Assembly: GCA_963716175.1 (NCBI GenBank)
Contig: OY970296.1
Coordinates: 1,472,001-1,536,000 of the forward strand
Direction: 5' to 3'
From: an uncultured Armatimonadetes bacterium
GTDB lineage: Bacteria; Armatimonadota; Hebobacteria; Hebobacterales; Hebobacteraceae
Length of the DNA stretch: 64,000 bases
Of this stretch, positions 7,809 through 50,503 are shown one piece after another. The notes below the pieces were generated by a model. It was given only the letters and a program-made list of their open reading frames with translations. It was not told where the DNA came from and made no database searches. The position numbers and the translations under genes are program-made. How positions within the stretch are numbered: the first letter of the stretch is position 1; the number at the start of each line of letters is the position of its first letter.

Positions 7809-8947
7809 ATGCCTTTCAACGGTTTGGCAACCTACGACAACTTCGAGGGGATTGGAGAGGATGTCTCCGATCTCGTCGCGTTCTGGCCCCCTTCGAGACC
7901 CCGCTGCTGGAGGTGGTGGGCGGGGCCGATCAGCCGGCCACCAACGTCAAGCACGAGTGGCTGGAGGACACGCTGAACCCGACCACGGATATCACCTCCA
8001 CTGGGGTGGCCTCGGCCACCGGGCAGGGGACACTGACGGTGGCCCATGCCAGCTACTTCCGGGCCGGTGACACTATCCAGCTCGACACGGAAGTGATGCT
8101 GGTGAACTCGGTCTCGGACACCAGCACCATCGGCGTCACGCGCGGCTATGGCGCCACCGCGGCGGCCGCGCACAGCGCGGGCGCGGGGATCACCATCATC
8201 GGCAACGCCGCCCTGGAGGGCGAAGACACCGACGAGGATCGCACCACGCGCCAGGTGCGCAAGTCCAACTACTGCCAGATCCTGAAGGTCGGGGTGAAGC
8301 TGTCTGGCACCGCCCAGGCGGTGGGCTGGATCACCACCGGGGATAAGCTGGCGGACGCCAAGGTGATGCGGCTGCGCGAGCTGCTGCGCGACCTGGAGAA
8401 GACCATTCTGCTGGGCCGCACCGATGTCGCCACCATTGGCTCGGACACCGCGCGGCGCACCATGGCTGGCATCGTCTGCTCGCTGGCCACCAATGTGGTG
8501 AGCTGCGGCACGCTCACCGAGAGCGCGCTGGGCAACCTGCTGCAGTCCTGCTACAACCAGGGCAACCGGGATATGGACCTAATCGTGGCTCCGCCCAAGC
8601 AGAAGCGGATCATCTCCGGCTGGAACAGCAGCCGCATCCACGTCACCAATGAGGCCAATGCCTACCGCAACGTGGTGGAGGTGTACGAGAGCGACTTCGG
8701 CAGCCAGCGCGTGATCATGAACCGGTGGCTGCCCGATGACATGGTGCTGACCCTGGACTCCAGCCGAATCAAGGTGGTGCCGCTGGCGGGCCGGTCTTTC
8801 CGCTATGAGGAGCTGGCCAAAGGCGGCGACTACGTGCGCGGGCAGATCGTGGGCGAGTATACGCTCGAGCTGCGGAACGGAAAGCCCCTAAGCCGGCTAC
8901 AGGCGGAAGGTCAGGAGGGGCAGGGAATCGGCCCCGATGACCACTGA
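7809..8947 (+). CDS. Major capsid protein (SU10/DUF5309-like), 5' part; frameshifted near 7883 and interrupted at 8879
   Basis: N-terminus MPFNGLATYDNFEGIGEDVSDLVAF from ATG 7809 (AAGGAG RBS); continues in the -1 frame 'APFETPLL..KHEWLEDTL..NYCQI..YESDFG..GEYTLELRN'; the last 22 codons of the ORF come from the inserted element. Confidence 0.85.
8873..8898. other. attL (core CGGAACG plus P' arm GAAAGCCCCTAAGCCGGCT)
   Basis: The arm at 8880-8898 is reverse-complementary (14/19) to the arm at 50444-50462. Confidence 0.85.
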
Positions 8948-10366
8948 CTCCAGCAGCTCGCCCAGCAGGCGCCGCTTCTGCTCAAAGGGCACGTCTGACC
9001 GGAGCAGCTCAGCGAGATCCCGGAAGCGCCGGCGCACGGGAATGGCAGAGGGCCGTCGGCGCTGAGACCCGGCAAGGGCGGCCCGCAATCCCTTCTCCTC
9101 GCGCTCGATGCGAGCCTGCTGTTGACGGTAGGCCGGCTCATCGTAGAGCCCGCGCTCGAAGCCCCCGATCAACCTGCGACGCCGGCCGGGGATCTCCTCC
9201 AGGTCCCGGCGGATGCGGGCCACATCGGGCAGTTCGGCCGGACGGTGGGGCAGCTCCCGCAGTTCCTTGGTGGTGGCGCGGGAAAGAGCGCCCAGAGCCT
9301 CGATCACCAGGTTCTCGGCCTTACGGACGCTGACATAGCTCCCCTTACAGCTATCGAGGTGGCTGGCCTTCGCCGCACAGTCGTAGACACCGTACTCGTA
9401 GGGTCTGGAGTGCCGCCGGTAGCGATGCCAATGGCCAGTCATAGGACCTCCGCACAAGCGGCAACGGAGGATGCCCGAGAGCAGGTAACGCTCGGCGACA
9501 CGCACCCGCTTGAGCTGCCCCCGGCGGTGGGTGAGGATGGCATTCGCTCTCTCCCACACCTCCTTCGAGACCAGGGGCTGATGCTTGCCAGGAAGGAGTT
9601 GCCCGTTCCACGGAATCAGGCCCAGGTAGGTGGCCTTGCGCAGCATCCGGTTGATGTCGGTAGCCGACCAGGCGTTGTAACTGGGGCCCGATTGAGTGAT
9701 GGCAGTCAGGCGGCGCCCGCATTCCTGGGTGCCGACCTGGTCGTGTACATACCACAAGAAGACCTGGGCCACGAGCCGGGCGGCTGACCAGCCCTGGTAG
9801 CGCGGTTCCTGATCCGGGACCAACTGCTTATCCACCATCCGGTATCCGAAGGGGGTTCGGCCCACCCACTCGCCGCACTCGGCCTTGTGACGCATCGCTG
9901 CCTTGACGTTGGCGCCGATCATCTTGCGCACCCGGGCCGAGAAGATGGAGCTGATGCCCAGCAGATCGCGCCCGTAGTCGGGGTCGTCATACTGGGGTTC
10001 CGTGGCGGATCGGAAGGCCACGCCGTAGGCGTCCAGCCGCCGCAGGATCTCGTAGATGTCGCCTTCGTCCCGGCTCAGCCGGTCCAGGCGAAAGACCACT
10101 AAGGCGTCGAAGGGCCGGCCCGAAGGCGGGGGAATCCGGGCGCGGGTCTTGGCGCGGCGGCGGACGTAGGGGAGCTGGGAGAGGATGGCCTGAAGGCCCG
10201 GCCGATACCATTCGGCACCGGTCACGCCCTCATCGGCGTAGATGTCGAGCAGGTCCCACCCATGCGAAACACAGTAGCCGGCGATGGCGCGGCGCTGCAC
10301 CTCCAGCGAGAGGCCCTCGCGGGCCTGGTCGTCGGTCGAGACTCGAACATAAGCCACCGCGCGCAT
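8897..10366 (-). CDS. Large serine recombinase (integrase)
   Basis: 'AYVRVSTDDQ' catalytic Ser, 'RLDRLSR', recombinase domain 'PFGY', 'HQPLVSKEVW', Zn ribbon 'LLSGILRCRLCG'. Confidence 0.95.
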   Translation of the reverse strand: MRAVAYVRVSTDDQAREGLSLEVQRRAIAGYCVSHGWDLLDIYADEGVTGAEWYRPGLQAILSQLPYVRRRAKTRARIPPPSGRPFDALVVFRLDRLSRDEGDIYEILRRLDAYGVAFRSATEPQYDDPDYGRDLLGISSIFSARVRKMIGANVKAAMRHKAECGEWVGRTPFGYRMVDKQLVPDQEPRYQGWSAARLVAQVFLWYVHDQVGTQECGRRLTAITQSGPSYNAWSATDINRMLRKATYLGLIPWNGQLLPGKHQPLVSKEVWERANAILTHRRGQLKRVRVAERYLLSGILRCRLCGGPMTGHWHRYRRHSRPYEYGVYDCAAKASHLDSCKGSYVSVRKAENLVIEALGALSRATTKELRELPHRPAELPDVARIRRDLEEIPGRRRRLIGGFERGLYDEPAYRQQQARIEREEKGLRAALAGSQRRRPSAIPVRRRFRDLAELLRSDVPFEQKRRLLGELLESVVIGADSLPLLTFRL

Positions 10367-10415
10367 GGGTCGGTCACCGTCCTGAATCAGTAGCGCCTCG
10401 CTGATCGCGCCCGGC

Positions 10416-10712
10416 TCATGGCGCCGCTGTGTCCAAGCGCCCCTCTCTCAACGCCATGAGGTCGTCTACCATCGCTCTCCCGCGCGTCATATCCAAACTA
10501 CCCATGATTGTGTTCAGAAGCTCCAACGCATCCTGTGTCGGCAGCATCAGGGAGGCCTTCAGCTCGCCCGCTTCATCATCCAGCTCTGGCGCCCAGATCC
10601 CAATGCCAACCTTGCTTCCATCCTTGCGGACTATCACCGTAAGAGTGATGGTCTCGAGCGCACCGTCAGATGCACCCGGAGGAAGCCACTGCCCCACAAT
10701 GCTTCTGGCCAT
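10416..10712 (-). CDS. Hypothetical protein upstream of the integrase
   Basis: 98 aa ORF with GGAGG RBS, co-oriented with the integrase. Confidence 0.6.
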   Translation of the reverse strand: MARSIVGQWLPPGASDGALETITLTVIVRKDGSKVGIGIWAPELDDEAGELKASLMLPTQDALELLNTIMGSLDMTRGRAMVDDLMALREGRLDTAAP

Positions 10713-11036
10713 CGTACACCTCCGTTATCCGAGCCTGGTTACACGACAGGCCTAGGGCCAAGGAAAGTGGCCCCCGCAGTACGTCCACCGAGGAGCTGGC
10801 AAGCGCCGAAGTGGGTCGCACCACGAGGGCCAAAAGGGGATACCACAGAGTTGCCAGCTCCTCATGCCGAACACTTACCATGTCCGGGCCTCGGTTCCTT
10901 CTTTCCCTGCGCCCGCCCCACCACACCACTAGTCGGGTCGGCCTCCCGGCAGGCTGGGGCCCTGGCCCGATCACCGCCCTCGCGCGGCGCGCCCCCCAGC
11001 GGGTTCCCCTACGGCGGCTCGCGCCATCCGCCAGGA

Positions 11037-11066
11037 TTGCAGTGGCAAGCGCCGAAGTGCTATAAT
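11037..11066 (+). promoter_or_regulatory. sigma70-type promoter
   Basis: TTGCAG-N18-TATAAT with extended TG. Confidence 0.55.
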
Positions 11067-49979: not shown

Positions 49980-50075
49980 CTCCTGACGCTGTCCCGGCCC
50001 GAGACTGGCGCTCGCGGGCATGCAAGGAAGGCGTAGACTAAGAGATTGCGTTGCGCCCCGGTGCCTGTGTTCCTG

Positions 50076-50351
50076 CTACCGCGCCAGCGACGCTTTGGGC
50101 TCGCGGCCACTTTGTAGCTGGCCCTCGTAGACCAGCACCATATCCCCCAGCAGCTTCGCCAGGCTCATCCCTGCGGTCTCGGCGACCTGGCGCATTCTGG
50201 CCGCCAACGCCCCCCGGATCGGCACCGTGAGCATCTCAGGGTGCACCCGAGGCCGCGAACGGCGGCGCACGCTGTCCCACACCAGGTGGCCCCGCGGAAT
50301 GAGCCCGTAGCAGGGGCTAGGACGGGCGATTGCCGCCGGGGGTGTCTCCAC
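50076..50351 (-). CDS. Small RHH-like protein at the right end of the island
   Basis: 'LTVPIRGALAARMRQVAETAGMSLAKLL' beta-helix-helix pattern; start uncertain. Confidence 0.45.
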   Translation of the reverse strand: METPPAAIARPSPCYGLIPRGHLVWDSVRRRSRPRVHPEMLTVPIRGALAARMRQVAETAGMSLAKLLGDMVLVYEGQLQSGREPKASLAR

Positions 50352-50443
50352 CCATCCCCCGCCCGGGGTGCCCCACGCACAGGCACACAGCCCCCCACAG
50401 CCCCTATTTGTGGGCGAGAGCCGCCTGCGCTAAGGCGGCCGGA

Positions 50444-50468
50444 AGCCGGTTTGTGGCGTTTCGGAACG
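50444..50468. other. attR (P arm AGCCGGTTTGTGGCGTTTC plus core CGGAACG)
   Basis: Core identical to 8873-8879; arm complementary to the attL arm. Confidence 0.85.
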
Positions 50469-50503
50469 AGAACGCGCACGGCCTTCTCCAGGGGCTCGCG
50501 TAA
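50462..50503 (+). CDS. Displaced 3' end of the major capsid gene (RNENAHGLLQGLA*)
   Basis: In frame with GEYTLEL-RN after joining at the core; followed by TAA and a REP. Confidence 0.85.
   Translation, partial: RNENAHGLLQGLA

Follow-up and report, generated by a model that had tools for sequence, protein, structure and literature searches.

A large serine recombinase element within the major capsid gene of a phage-derived cluster in an uncultured Armatimonadetes bacterium

A phage-type major capsid gene in the genome of an uncultured Armatimonadetes bacterium of the family Hebobacteraceae raises the question of how such a gene came to be separated from its last codons, and whether the DNA lying between the two parts could leave again. 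The gene is located in a 64000 nucleotide (nt) stretch of DNA that was analysed as a whole and is referred to here as the window (GenBank accession number OY970296.1; coordinates 1472001–1536000, or G000:C1:1472001-1536000 in the labels used below). An initial annotation of the window had proposed that a 41.6 kb element with a serine integrase splits the gene, and that excision of the element might act as a switch for capsid production. The genome under study (assembly accession number GCA_963716175.1; G000, other G numbers being relatives) is a single contig of 4.56 Mb with a GC content of 66.2% and a completeness of 90.85%. Domains and families were called using Pfam, PHROG and PADLOC profiles, and loci or contigs (L004, L008, L021 etc.) and proteins (P0125 etc.) are given locus and protein labels, respectively.

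Position and boundaries of the insertion

The 5′ part of the gene (7809–8877, + strand) covers codons 1–358 of 368 and encodes a major capsid protein of the SU10/DUF5309 type (Pfam SU10_MCP, E 2.5e-69). The open reading frame (ORF) as read in the window (7805–8947; P0003) predicts a product of 380 amino acids (aa), in which the Pfam match covers only profile positions 21–283 of 292. A search of 5.8 billion proteins, with 120 relatives listed, found P0004 to P0052 to be 74–98% identical to the window capsid; nearly all of these are 366–368 aa long, three are 370–373 aa, and the orthologues that were fetched have 368 aa in 10 of 10 cases. Their N-termini read MPF(N/S)GLATYDNFEG..., with one reading MAFNGLAAYDHFEG... 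instead, and their C-termini read ...GEY(T/S)(L/T)ELRN(E/Q)(N/T)(A/G)H(G/A)... followed by five residues, for example ...RNENAHGLLQGL(A/G). The window protein agrees with the orthologues through ...ELRN (codon 358, ending at 8877) and then continues with 22 unrelated residues, which arise by read-through into the 3′ end of the antisense integrase gene. Translation thus confirmed the earlier statement that the inserted DNA supplies no replacement for the 3′ end and adds a foreign tail of 22 aa.

The missing end is found at 50467–50503 (+ strand), where the last 11 codons and the stop codon remain and translate to a sequence identical to the end of P0125. Positions 50469–50503 encode ENAHGLLQGLA and a stop codon directly behind the second of two copies of the sequence CGGAACG. 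The first copy, the attL identity block, is at 8873–8879 and the second, the attR identity block defined by comparison of the junctions, is at 50462–50468, and identity extends 0 nt beyond the block on both sides. The probable crossover dinucleotide AA lies at 8876–8877 in attL and at 50465–50466 in attR. Comparison of the junctions and of copy number defines the inserted element as 41,589 bp (8878–50466), present as a single copy in the genome.

Orthologous loci without an interruption, 8 in number and all from other genera, have continuous DNA across the site, and two of them, L004 and L008, carry exactly the rejoined attB junction that had been forecast in the initial annotation. P0125, a 368 aa protein from a metagenome that ends ...RNENAHGLLQGLA, equals the window capsid minus the insert and minus a 1-nt deletion that is described below. 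The motif at the C-terminus is kept in 18 aligned homologues, down to 43% identity, and aligns with the end of the solved chain 9ny2_A. Among 60 capsid sequences N357 is invariant and E358 and A360 are nearly invariant. The cut at 8873–8879 and the native end behind 50462–50468 were therefore placed correctly from the start, as the ENAHG-like ends of the ten orthologues and the identity with P0125 confirm. The capsid gene is split precisely by a mobile element.

A search for shortened capsids returned 9 fragments, and of the 6 that were fetched 5 end in the native motif. One candidate, P0159, was considered as a possible insertion at the same site and rejected, as it is a 43% identical relative with a shifted C-terminus. 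P0159 (151 aa, encoded by a contig of 57,659 nt) is aberrant at both ends, its C-terminus being apparently frame-shifted just past ...ELR, and it represents a broken capsid gene of a distant relative.

As the contig was derived from a metagenome, both junctions could in principle have been made by a chimeric join. The single-contig genome has a completeness of 90.85%, and a likely indel occurs in at least one further conserved gene, which would fit an assembly artefact, and the completeness values of single-contig genomes in the Hebobacteraceae are low generally (90.85, 81 and 65). However, the left junction recurs in an independent contig, L021, and in P0126, which comes from another assembly, and the right junction holds exactly the missing 11 codons followed by syntenic genes of the cluster. 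An artefact is therefore extremely improbable. The public read data comprised 22 runs, all of them metagenomes in the form of Logan contigs and none recorded as RNA, and the best run covers 0.47 of the sampled words. Four of these runs (X1–X4), which offer short contigs only, were compared with the window, and no contig in them crosses from 8879 to the inserted DNA. A contig of 151 nt (X1 record 8) matches 8817–8879 and then departs from the window. Runs X2 and X4 each include one contig that matches the 3′ region of the integrase gene from 8955 and is unlike the window before that position, indicating a related recombinase in another context.

The integrase gene (8897–10366, - strand) encodes a large serine recombinase (LSR) of 489 aa and converges on the capsid gene. 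The product matches Pfam Resolvase (E 9.8e-27; 94.3 bits against a cut-off of 23.3), Recombinase (45.1 bits; cut-off 21.1) and Zn_ribbon_recom (45.8 bits; cut-off 25.3), as well as PHROG 95 (integrase; E 1.1e-90). Its motif YVRVSTDDQ aligns with YTRVSTTNQ in the catalytic region of the TP901-1 integrase, residue S10, examined as the nucleophilic serine, is invariant in 5 aligned homologues, and residues 86–481 match solved serine integrases.

When the 22 nt that close the element ahead of the core were compared as an inverted repeat with the first 22 nt behind the core, 15 of 22 positions were found to match around the central AA. Random window positions gave a mean of 6.0 (sd 2.1) with 0 of 20,000 reaching 15, and the five alternative dinucleotide registers in the 7-nt block gave 4–9 of 22. 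The imperfect inverted repeat around AA that had been described earlier is thus well beyond chance, and the reconstituted capsid-side site is weakly symmetric (7 of 22). The stop codon of the LSR gene (8897–8899) is the outermost triplet of the right 22-nt arm, in agreement with the reported overlap of the integrase stop with the attL arm. A second copy of the att sites was not found in the G000 genome. On these features, the element is bounded by a predicted intact LSR and putative att sites of the LSR type.

Scans for promoters and terminators at both junctions called nothing. Two GC-rich stretches able to form hairpins were seen by eye just after the native capsid stop codon (50507–50560), where a simple terminator scan made no call, and similar hairpins follow the capsid stop codon in some relatives.

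The interrupted cluster and its inheritance

The genes upstream of the split capsid gene, all on the + strand, are those of a phage head module. The cluster opens with a helix-turn-helix (HTH) protein gene in the position of a small terminase gene (3477–4022; Pfam HTH_23, E 2.9e-7), and similarity to the clusters of relatives starts at ~3651. It is followed by genes for the terminase large subunit (3796–5262; PHROG 2, E 3.3e-37; Pfam Terminase_6N/6C; 72% aa identity to G002), a portal protein (5329–6633; Pfam SPP1_portal, E 1.9e-23; PHROG 64; 86% identity to G002 and G009), a DUF1232 protein (6644–6988; Pfam DUF1232, E 3.3e-13) with orthologues in G002 and G009, and a scaffold-like protein (7166–7711) that is 75% identical to those of relatives and weakly matches PHROG 172 (head scaffolding, E 4.7e-4).

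Beyond the element, the first genes are an amidohydrolase gene and a glycosyltransferase gene (50618–53776, + strand; Pfam), which occupy the same place in the clusters of those relatives that have them. The tail module (53824–64000, + strand) includes genes for a tail-terminator-like protein (54624–55103), a tail tube protein (55142–56107), a 916-aa tail protein (58210–60960) and others, and the last gene of the cluster, Peptidase_M15_4, lies just past the end of the window (L027:1420-2181). The initial annotation had the virion operon resume after 50.5 kb. Genes of the cluster do resume there, but the recognisable tail genes start at ~53.8–55.1 kb. The separation of head genes from tail genes by the insertion was also borne out, the distance being 41.6 kb.

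Without the insert, the cluster is ~19 kb and is confined to structural and lysis genes; the Pfam and PHROG scans found none in it for an integrase, a repressor or replication. A single copy of the capsid gene was found in each of 10 of the 14 other family genomes examined, which represent eight genera, with 82–89% identity to the window capsid. It was also found in the single genome examined from a second family of the order, and in 0 of 25 more distant genomes. Gene order is common to G002, G005, G006, G009 and G011 at 70–82% nucleotide identity. The neighbours of the cluster are cellular genes, namely those for trigger factor, a KaiC-like protein and a MerR protein on the left and radical SAM, AMP-ligase and DUF366 proteins on the right. 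The left flank is orthologous in G000 and G002, with the KaiC-like ATPase and MerR regulator genes next to the trigger factor gene, and the right flank is orthologous in G000, G002 and G009 for radical SAM and AMP-ligase, with DUF366 also in G009. Identity is 66–77% for the flank proteins and 61–86% for the cluster proteins.

For the capsid gene, dN/dS is 0.11–0.28 over all 28 pairs compared, indicating purifying selection. The nearest capsid of a cultured phage is 34.5% identical, and one capsid protein cluster from a relative was labelled Armatimonadota in its source. The cluster therefore looks like a domesticated, vertically inherited set of genes for a particle similar to a gene transfer agent (GTA) or to PBSX. 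As in GTAs and PBSX-like defective prophages, the cluster has head, tail and lysis genes only, a fixed place across genera and a signature of purifying selection. The description of the interrupted gene as a phage capsid gene thus stands in that it encodes a major capsid protein, but it does not belong to an ordinary prophage; it belongs to a structural-only cluster inherited vertically between the same cellular genes. In the literature searched, no paper was found to link this lineage to GTAs beyond two incidental mentions.

Variation was also seen within the cluster. The amidohydrolase gene, which with a gene for a double-domain glycosyltransferase lies between the head and tail genes, is missing from G002 and G009, and comparison of the L015, L016 and L017 loci revealed extra DNA of 1–2.6 kb at several points in the clusters of G005 and G011, suggesting variable slots.

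Gene content, distribution and relatives of the element

The GC content of the element (64.0%) is below that of the genome (66.2%), and a value as low is reached by only 3.2% of genome segments of equal length. Most of its genes are read leftward, starting with those for the LSR, a 98-aa ORF, PorV-like, PLD-like and SLH-domain proteins, an S24 peptidase, a tyrosine recombinase and an SDH-type protease. The leftward series continues with genes for ParA-like, HD, Mrr_N, GmrSD-like and small-terminase-like proteins and a DnaB-N/AAA_25 helicase, and an IS21-type insertion sequence lies among them on the + strand. A Type III restriction-modification (R-M) system and a Lamassu-like pair are read rightward.

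The rightward genes encode a Type III restriction subunit (37891–40962; Pfam ResIII; PADLOC REase_III, E 4.2e-11), a Type III methyltransferase in two ORFs (41515–44414; PADLOC MTase_III) and a Lamassu-like pair (44420–49979) composed of a weakly matching LmuA-like protein (PADLOC LmuA, E 1.5e-10) and an LmuB-like SMC ATPase (LmuB, E 9.9e-65). The two methyltransferase ORFs (41515–43227 and 43200–44414) match positions 78–576 (E 2.6e-169) and 604–982 (E 5.2e-111) of the 983-position MTase_III profile; they overlap by 28 nt, which may reflect a frameshift or a natural split. The leftward genes include those for a GmrSD-like type IV restriction protein (32053–33684, - strand; Pfam GmrSD_N, E 2.5e-26; PADLOC HEC-05, E 1e-25), a replication module with a DnaB-N and AAA_25 helicase (35567–36994, - strand; Pfam, E 4.6e-29 and 3.5e-29), a CI/LexA-like repressor with an S24 peptidase domain (18006–18689, - strand; Pfam Peptidase_S24, E 5e-10; PHROG 4 and 6201) and a small-terminase-like protein (34260–34751, - strand; PHROG 309, E 6.5e-12) that has no Pfam match. 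In the Pfam and PHROG scans the element yielded no gene for a capsid, portal or tail protein. Several recognised systems (Type III R-M, Lamassu-like and GmrSD-like) were found adjacent to one another using PADLOC, and its predicted gene content marks the element as an integrative defence island that also has housekeeping genes of a satellite-like kind.

Two other mobile components were seen inside the element. The gene for a tyrosine recombinase (18858–19973, - strand; Pfam Phage_integrase, E 1.7e-26) adjoins the gene for the CI-like S24 repressor in mid-element, and this region (18006–19973, - strand) may be a second element that is nested or fused. The IS21-type insertion sequence (istA and istB, 22650–25060, + strand; Pfam rve, Mu-transpos_C_2; IstB_IS21, E 1.7e-73) has one full copy in the genome, with partial relatives (80–86%) near 2.81 and 2.86 Mb.

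Close relatives of the LSR are rare. Among the 5.8 billion proteins there was one close cluster (P0147, 88% identity), the next matches being at most 41% identical, and the best match in 40 relatives was 37% identical. A close LSR was present in 0 of 11 relatives that carry the capsid gene, a scan of genome contigs returned only an unrelated 23% match, and pattern scans of viral contigs found neither the LSR nor the capsid. The metagenome scan for the LSR found one contig, L021 (4,218 nt), which encodes an 88% identical LSR at the same junction, with an arm and core identical to those of the window. In L021, the capsid flank differs from that of the window at 3 of 291 nt, while synonymous differences (pS) between the two LSR genes are 0.341 and nonsynonymous differences (pN) 0.066. 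The finding of diverged LSR variants in near-identical capsid alleles suggests that integration at this site has occurred on separate occasions and that the LSR is maintained under selection. The cargo of L021 is arranged differently, and ~5.5 kb of the cargo in the window is absent between the LSR region and the S24 gene. The corresponding segments (10985–16502 in the window and L021:333-1364) differ in that the PorV-like, PLD-like and SLH proteins are absent in L021, which gives the appearance of a variable cargo slot.

The cluster of capsid proteins formed at 90% identity includes the window protein, P0126, which has the same hybrid tail and comes from another assembly, and the intact proteins P0004 and P0125. 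Both filled and empty sites are therefore found in nature, which fits a recent insertion or ongoing excision alike.

The idea of an interrupted phage capsid gene is not without precedent, as satellites with tyrosine integrases were described in the capsid genes of prophages in 2023 (Tommasini, Mageeney and Williams; PMC10111431). These helper-embedded phage-inducible chromosomal islands (HE-PICIs) are the closest precedent. In the available text of that paper, they occupy 14 sites spread over nine lambdoid late genes, with 201 in the capsid gene, gene E being the commonest location, and their excision after induction was demonstrated experimentally (PMC10111431). They use one clade of tyrosine integrase together with AlpA, and the word 'serine' occurs 0 times in the main text available (PMC10111431). 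As in the HE-PICIs so described, in which the major capsid gene is the commonest host, the element studied here lies within a late structural gene of a phage-derived particle unit, with a short block of identity at the junctions, and its removal restores the gene. However, by the same description it differs in integrase type, orientation and size, as its LSR gene is antisense to the capsid gene, it is 41,589 bp long and carries defence cargo, and the Pfam scans found no AlpA match in it. The host unit differs as well, being a fixed cluster that lacks genes for lysogeny and replication.

The precedent raises the possibility that the element is itself a helper-embedded satellite, packaged and spread by the particles of its host cluster with the use of its own small-terminase-like protein and replicon. 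It has a repressor, a DnaB-type helicase and a small-terminase-like gene and is devoid of capsid, portal and tail genes, and it is integrated in a late gene of a particle-making cluster, as are the HE-PICIs, which are commonest in capsid gene E. Satellites with an LSR also exist, among them the PLEs (elements resembling phage-inducible chromosomal islands) of Vibrio cholerae, for which, in the part of the source available, the excision factor can be encoded by a phage and not by the island itself, as is the case for PexA (PMC6002521). As described there, the PLEs resemble the element in being defence-conferring islands moved by an LSR (PMC6002521). Unlike the element, the PLEs are ~18 kb and answer a lytic phage. 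PLEs integrate in a chromosomal repeat and are not known to do so in a phage gene. Against the satellite explanation, the element (41.6 kb) has double the length of the cluster and greatly exceeds the PICIs in size, and its integrase gene opposes the late gene, unlike those of HE-PICIs. In addition, the small-terminase call is a single PHROG match with neither Pfam support nor similarity to the HTH protein of the cluster (E 0.47). This explanation is therefore highly doubtful.

Capsid production and the role of the insertion

Since the conserved 11 residues at the C-terminus have been exchanged for 22 foreign ones and the head genes are cut off from those downstream, we infer that capsid production would fail while the insert is resident. 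Removal of the element in silico restores an ORF identical to that of P0125, as expected from the claim in the initial annotation that full-length capsid needs excision. However, the gene appears to have a second lesion. The conserved N-terminus identifies the ATG at 7809 as the true start codon, and comparison with the reading frames of the orthologues revealed a run of two T (7881–7882, + strand) where the relatives have three, a 1-nt deletion that breaks the frame after codon 25, at codon 26. The remainder of the gene is in the frame of the ATG at 7805. The orthologues read ...DLVAF(L/I)APFETPLL... at the deletion site, and three T (an extra T behind 7880) were found in one contig each of runs X2 and X3. 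The missing T may be a real frameshift or an assembly error, and if it is real, excision alone would be insufficient to give full-length capsid in this strain.

The capsid gene is the only gene of the cluster that is split between frames relative to G002 and G009. A scan for other frame-split genes in G000 relative to G002, in which queries with a best match of <55% identity were dropped (35 of 77), identified 1 among 42 orthologous genes (52.7 kb), an acetolactate-synthase-like gene, suggesting that indel errors or real pseudogenes occur at ~1 per 50 kb. The scan passed over the capsid gene itself, the E-value limit having excluded the first piece, which is short. The acetolactate-synthase-like gene is split at approximately 3641203–3641291 (- strand, G000:C1), which may reflect an assembly indel or a pseudogene.

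The proposed excision switch would have the element leave when the cluster is induced in lysing cells, rebuilding the capsid gene and the operon in the manner of skin in sigK and SPbeta in spsM. Several findings are consistent with this. The sites are of the conservative LSR type, the recombinase is intact and under purifying selection, the ORF predicted after removal is identical to a natural protein, and filled and empty forms both occur. In addition, the gene would be needed only in terminal cells, which is, in the portions of the sources available, the condition for the persistence of known intervening elements (PMC4191935, PMC5595907). Skin, SPbeta and gin, which interrupts gerE, are described in the accessible texts as gene-intervening elements that are excised by an LSR (PMC4191935, PMC5025042, PMC5595907). 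Like these, the element is bounded by an LSR gene and splits precisely an ORF of terminal cells that conservative recombination can rebuild. However, as described in those texts, the genes that they split are sporulation genes of Firmicutes, and excision has been demonstrated for them to be regulated and to involve a known directionality factor, whereas a capsid gene is interrupted here. The Armatimonadota lineage studied is, as far as was seen, not a spore former.

Other findings argue against a switch. Being rare, and missing from the other genomes with the capsid gene that were searched, the element is not part of the conserved control of the cluster. The recombinase gene is antisense to the late operon, the cargo consists of defence genes and IS21 with nothing that ties it to particle production, and the capsid gene in this assembly has the second lesion at 7881–7882. 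Among the Pfam and PHROG matches of the element proteins no family names a directionality factor, the 98-aa ORF being outside that search. This ORF (10416–10712, - strand) lies directly upstream of the LSR gene and is a candidate for an accessory factor; it is open in both variants of the element, and the window and L021 forms are equal in length, with 83% aa identity and a pN/pS of 0.57. A regulated switch is thus possible, though rather unlikely.

A safe-harbour insertion with no evolved regulatory role for the cluster is considered probable. Under this explanation, a rare LSR element would have entered the last 40–50 bp of the capsid gene by conservative site-specific recombination with the crossover at AA, its target being a ~19 kb phage-derived particle cluster inherited vertically in the Hebobacteraceae. 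The element carries genes for a repressor, a replicative helicase and a small-terminase-like protein together with a large anti-phage cargo, and its residence would stop capsid production. The insertion may be tolerated because only cells that are in any case destined to lyse would need the capsid gene, and excision with a directionality factor would rebuild the gene exactly.

Some of the findings weigh against this explanation. A satellite reliant on the particles that it interrupts would be well served by the small-terminase-like gene, helicase and repressor, which a pure safe-harbour explanation leaves unaccounted for. The occurrence of intact and interrupted alleles with identical protein suits active excision as well as recent insertion. 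The search for the capsid was negative in 4 of the 14 other family genomes (G001, G007, G013 and G014), the match in G010 is only 27% identical, and the genes of the left flank differ in G011. The term GTA-like is itself drawn from gene content, synteny and selection.

A further possibility combines features of these explanations. The element may be an LSR counterpart of the helper-embedded satellites, excising only in lysing cells in which the cluster is on and rebuilding the capsid gene there, while the germ line keeps the island together with a silenced cluster, and the island may leave in particles with the help of its own replicon and small-terminase-like protein. This is a speculative proposal and quite unlikely. 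If true, it would tie the spread of defence islands to the production of GTA-type particles in an uncultured lineage.

The present case extends the range of capsid-embedded mobile elements from the tyrosine-integrase PICIs of enterobacterial prophages to an LSR defence island in a distant, uncultured lineage, suggesting that integrative elements generally find a safe harbour in late structural genes. The literature search, which did not extend to supplements such as those with the site and integrase tables for the HE-PICIs, turned up no case of an LSR element within a capsid gene or within a GTA cluster. The interrupted cluster, which is conserved across genera, is also a candidate for a GTA-like unit in a group from which no GTA has been described. 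Direct tests are possible, as the recombinase and the two short sites constitute a defined pair, and as filled and empty sites occur naturally, junction assays could measure excision, what triggers it and how it affects the making of particles.

The window also includes a gene (619–3117, + strand) between the left flank and the cluster that encodes an 832-aa protein with TIR, STAND NTPase and TPR regions (Pfam TIR_2, E 1.3e-34; many TPR). The matching gap in G002 is only ~400 nt, thus the gene looks like a separate insertion of defence type.

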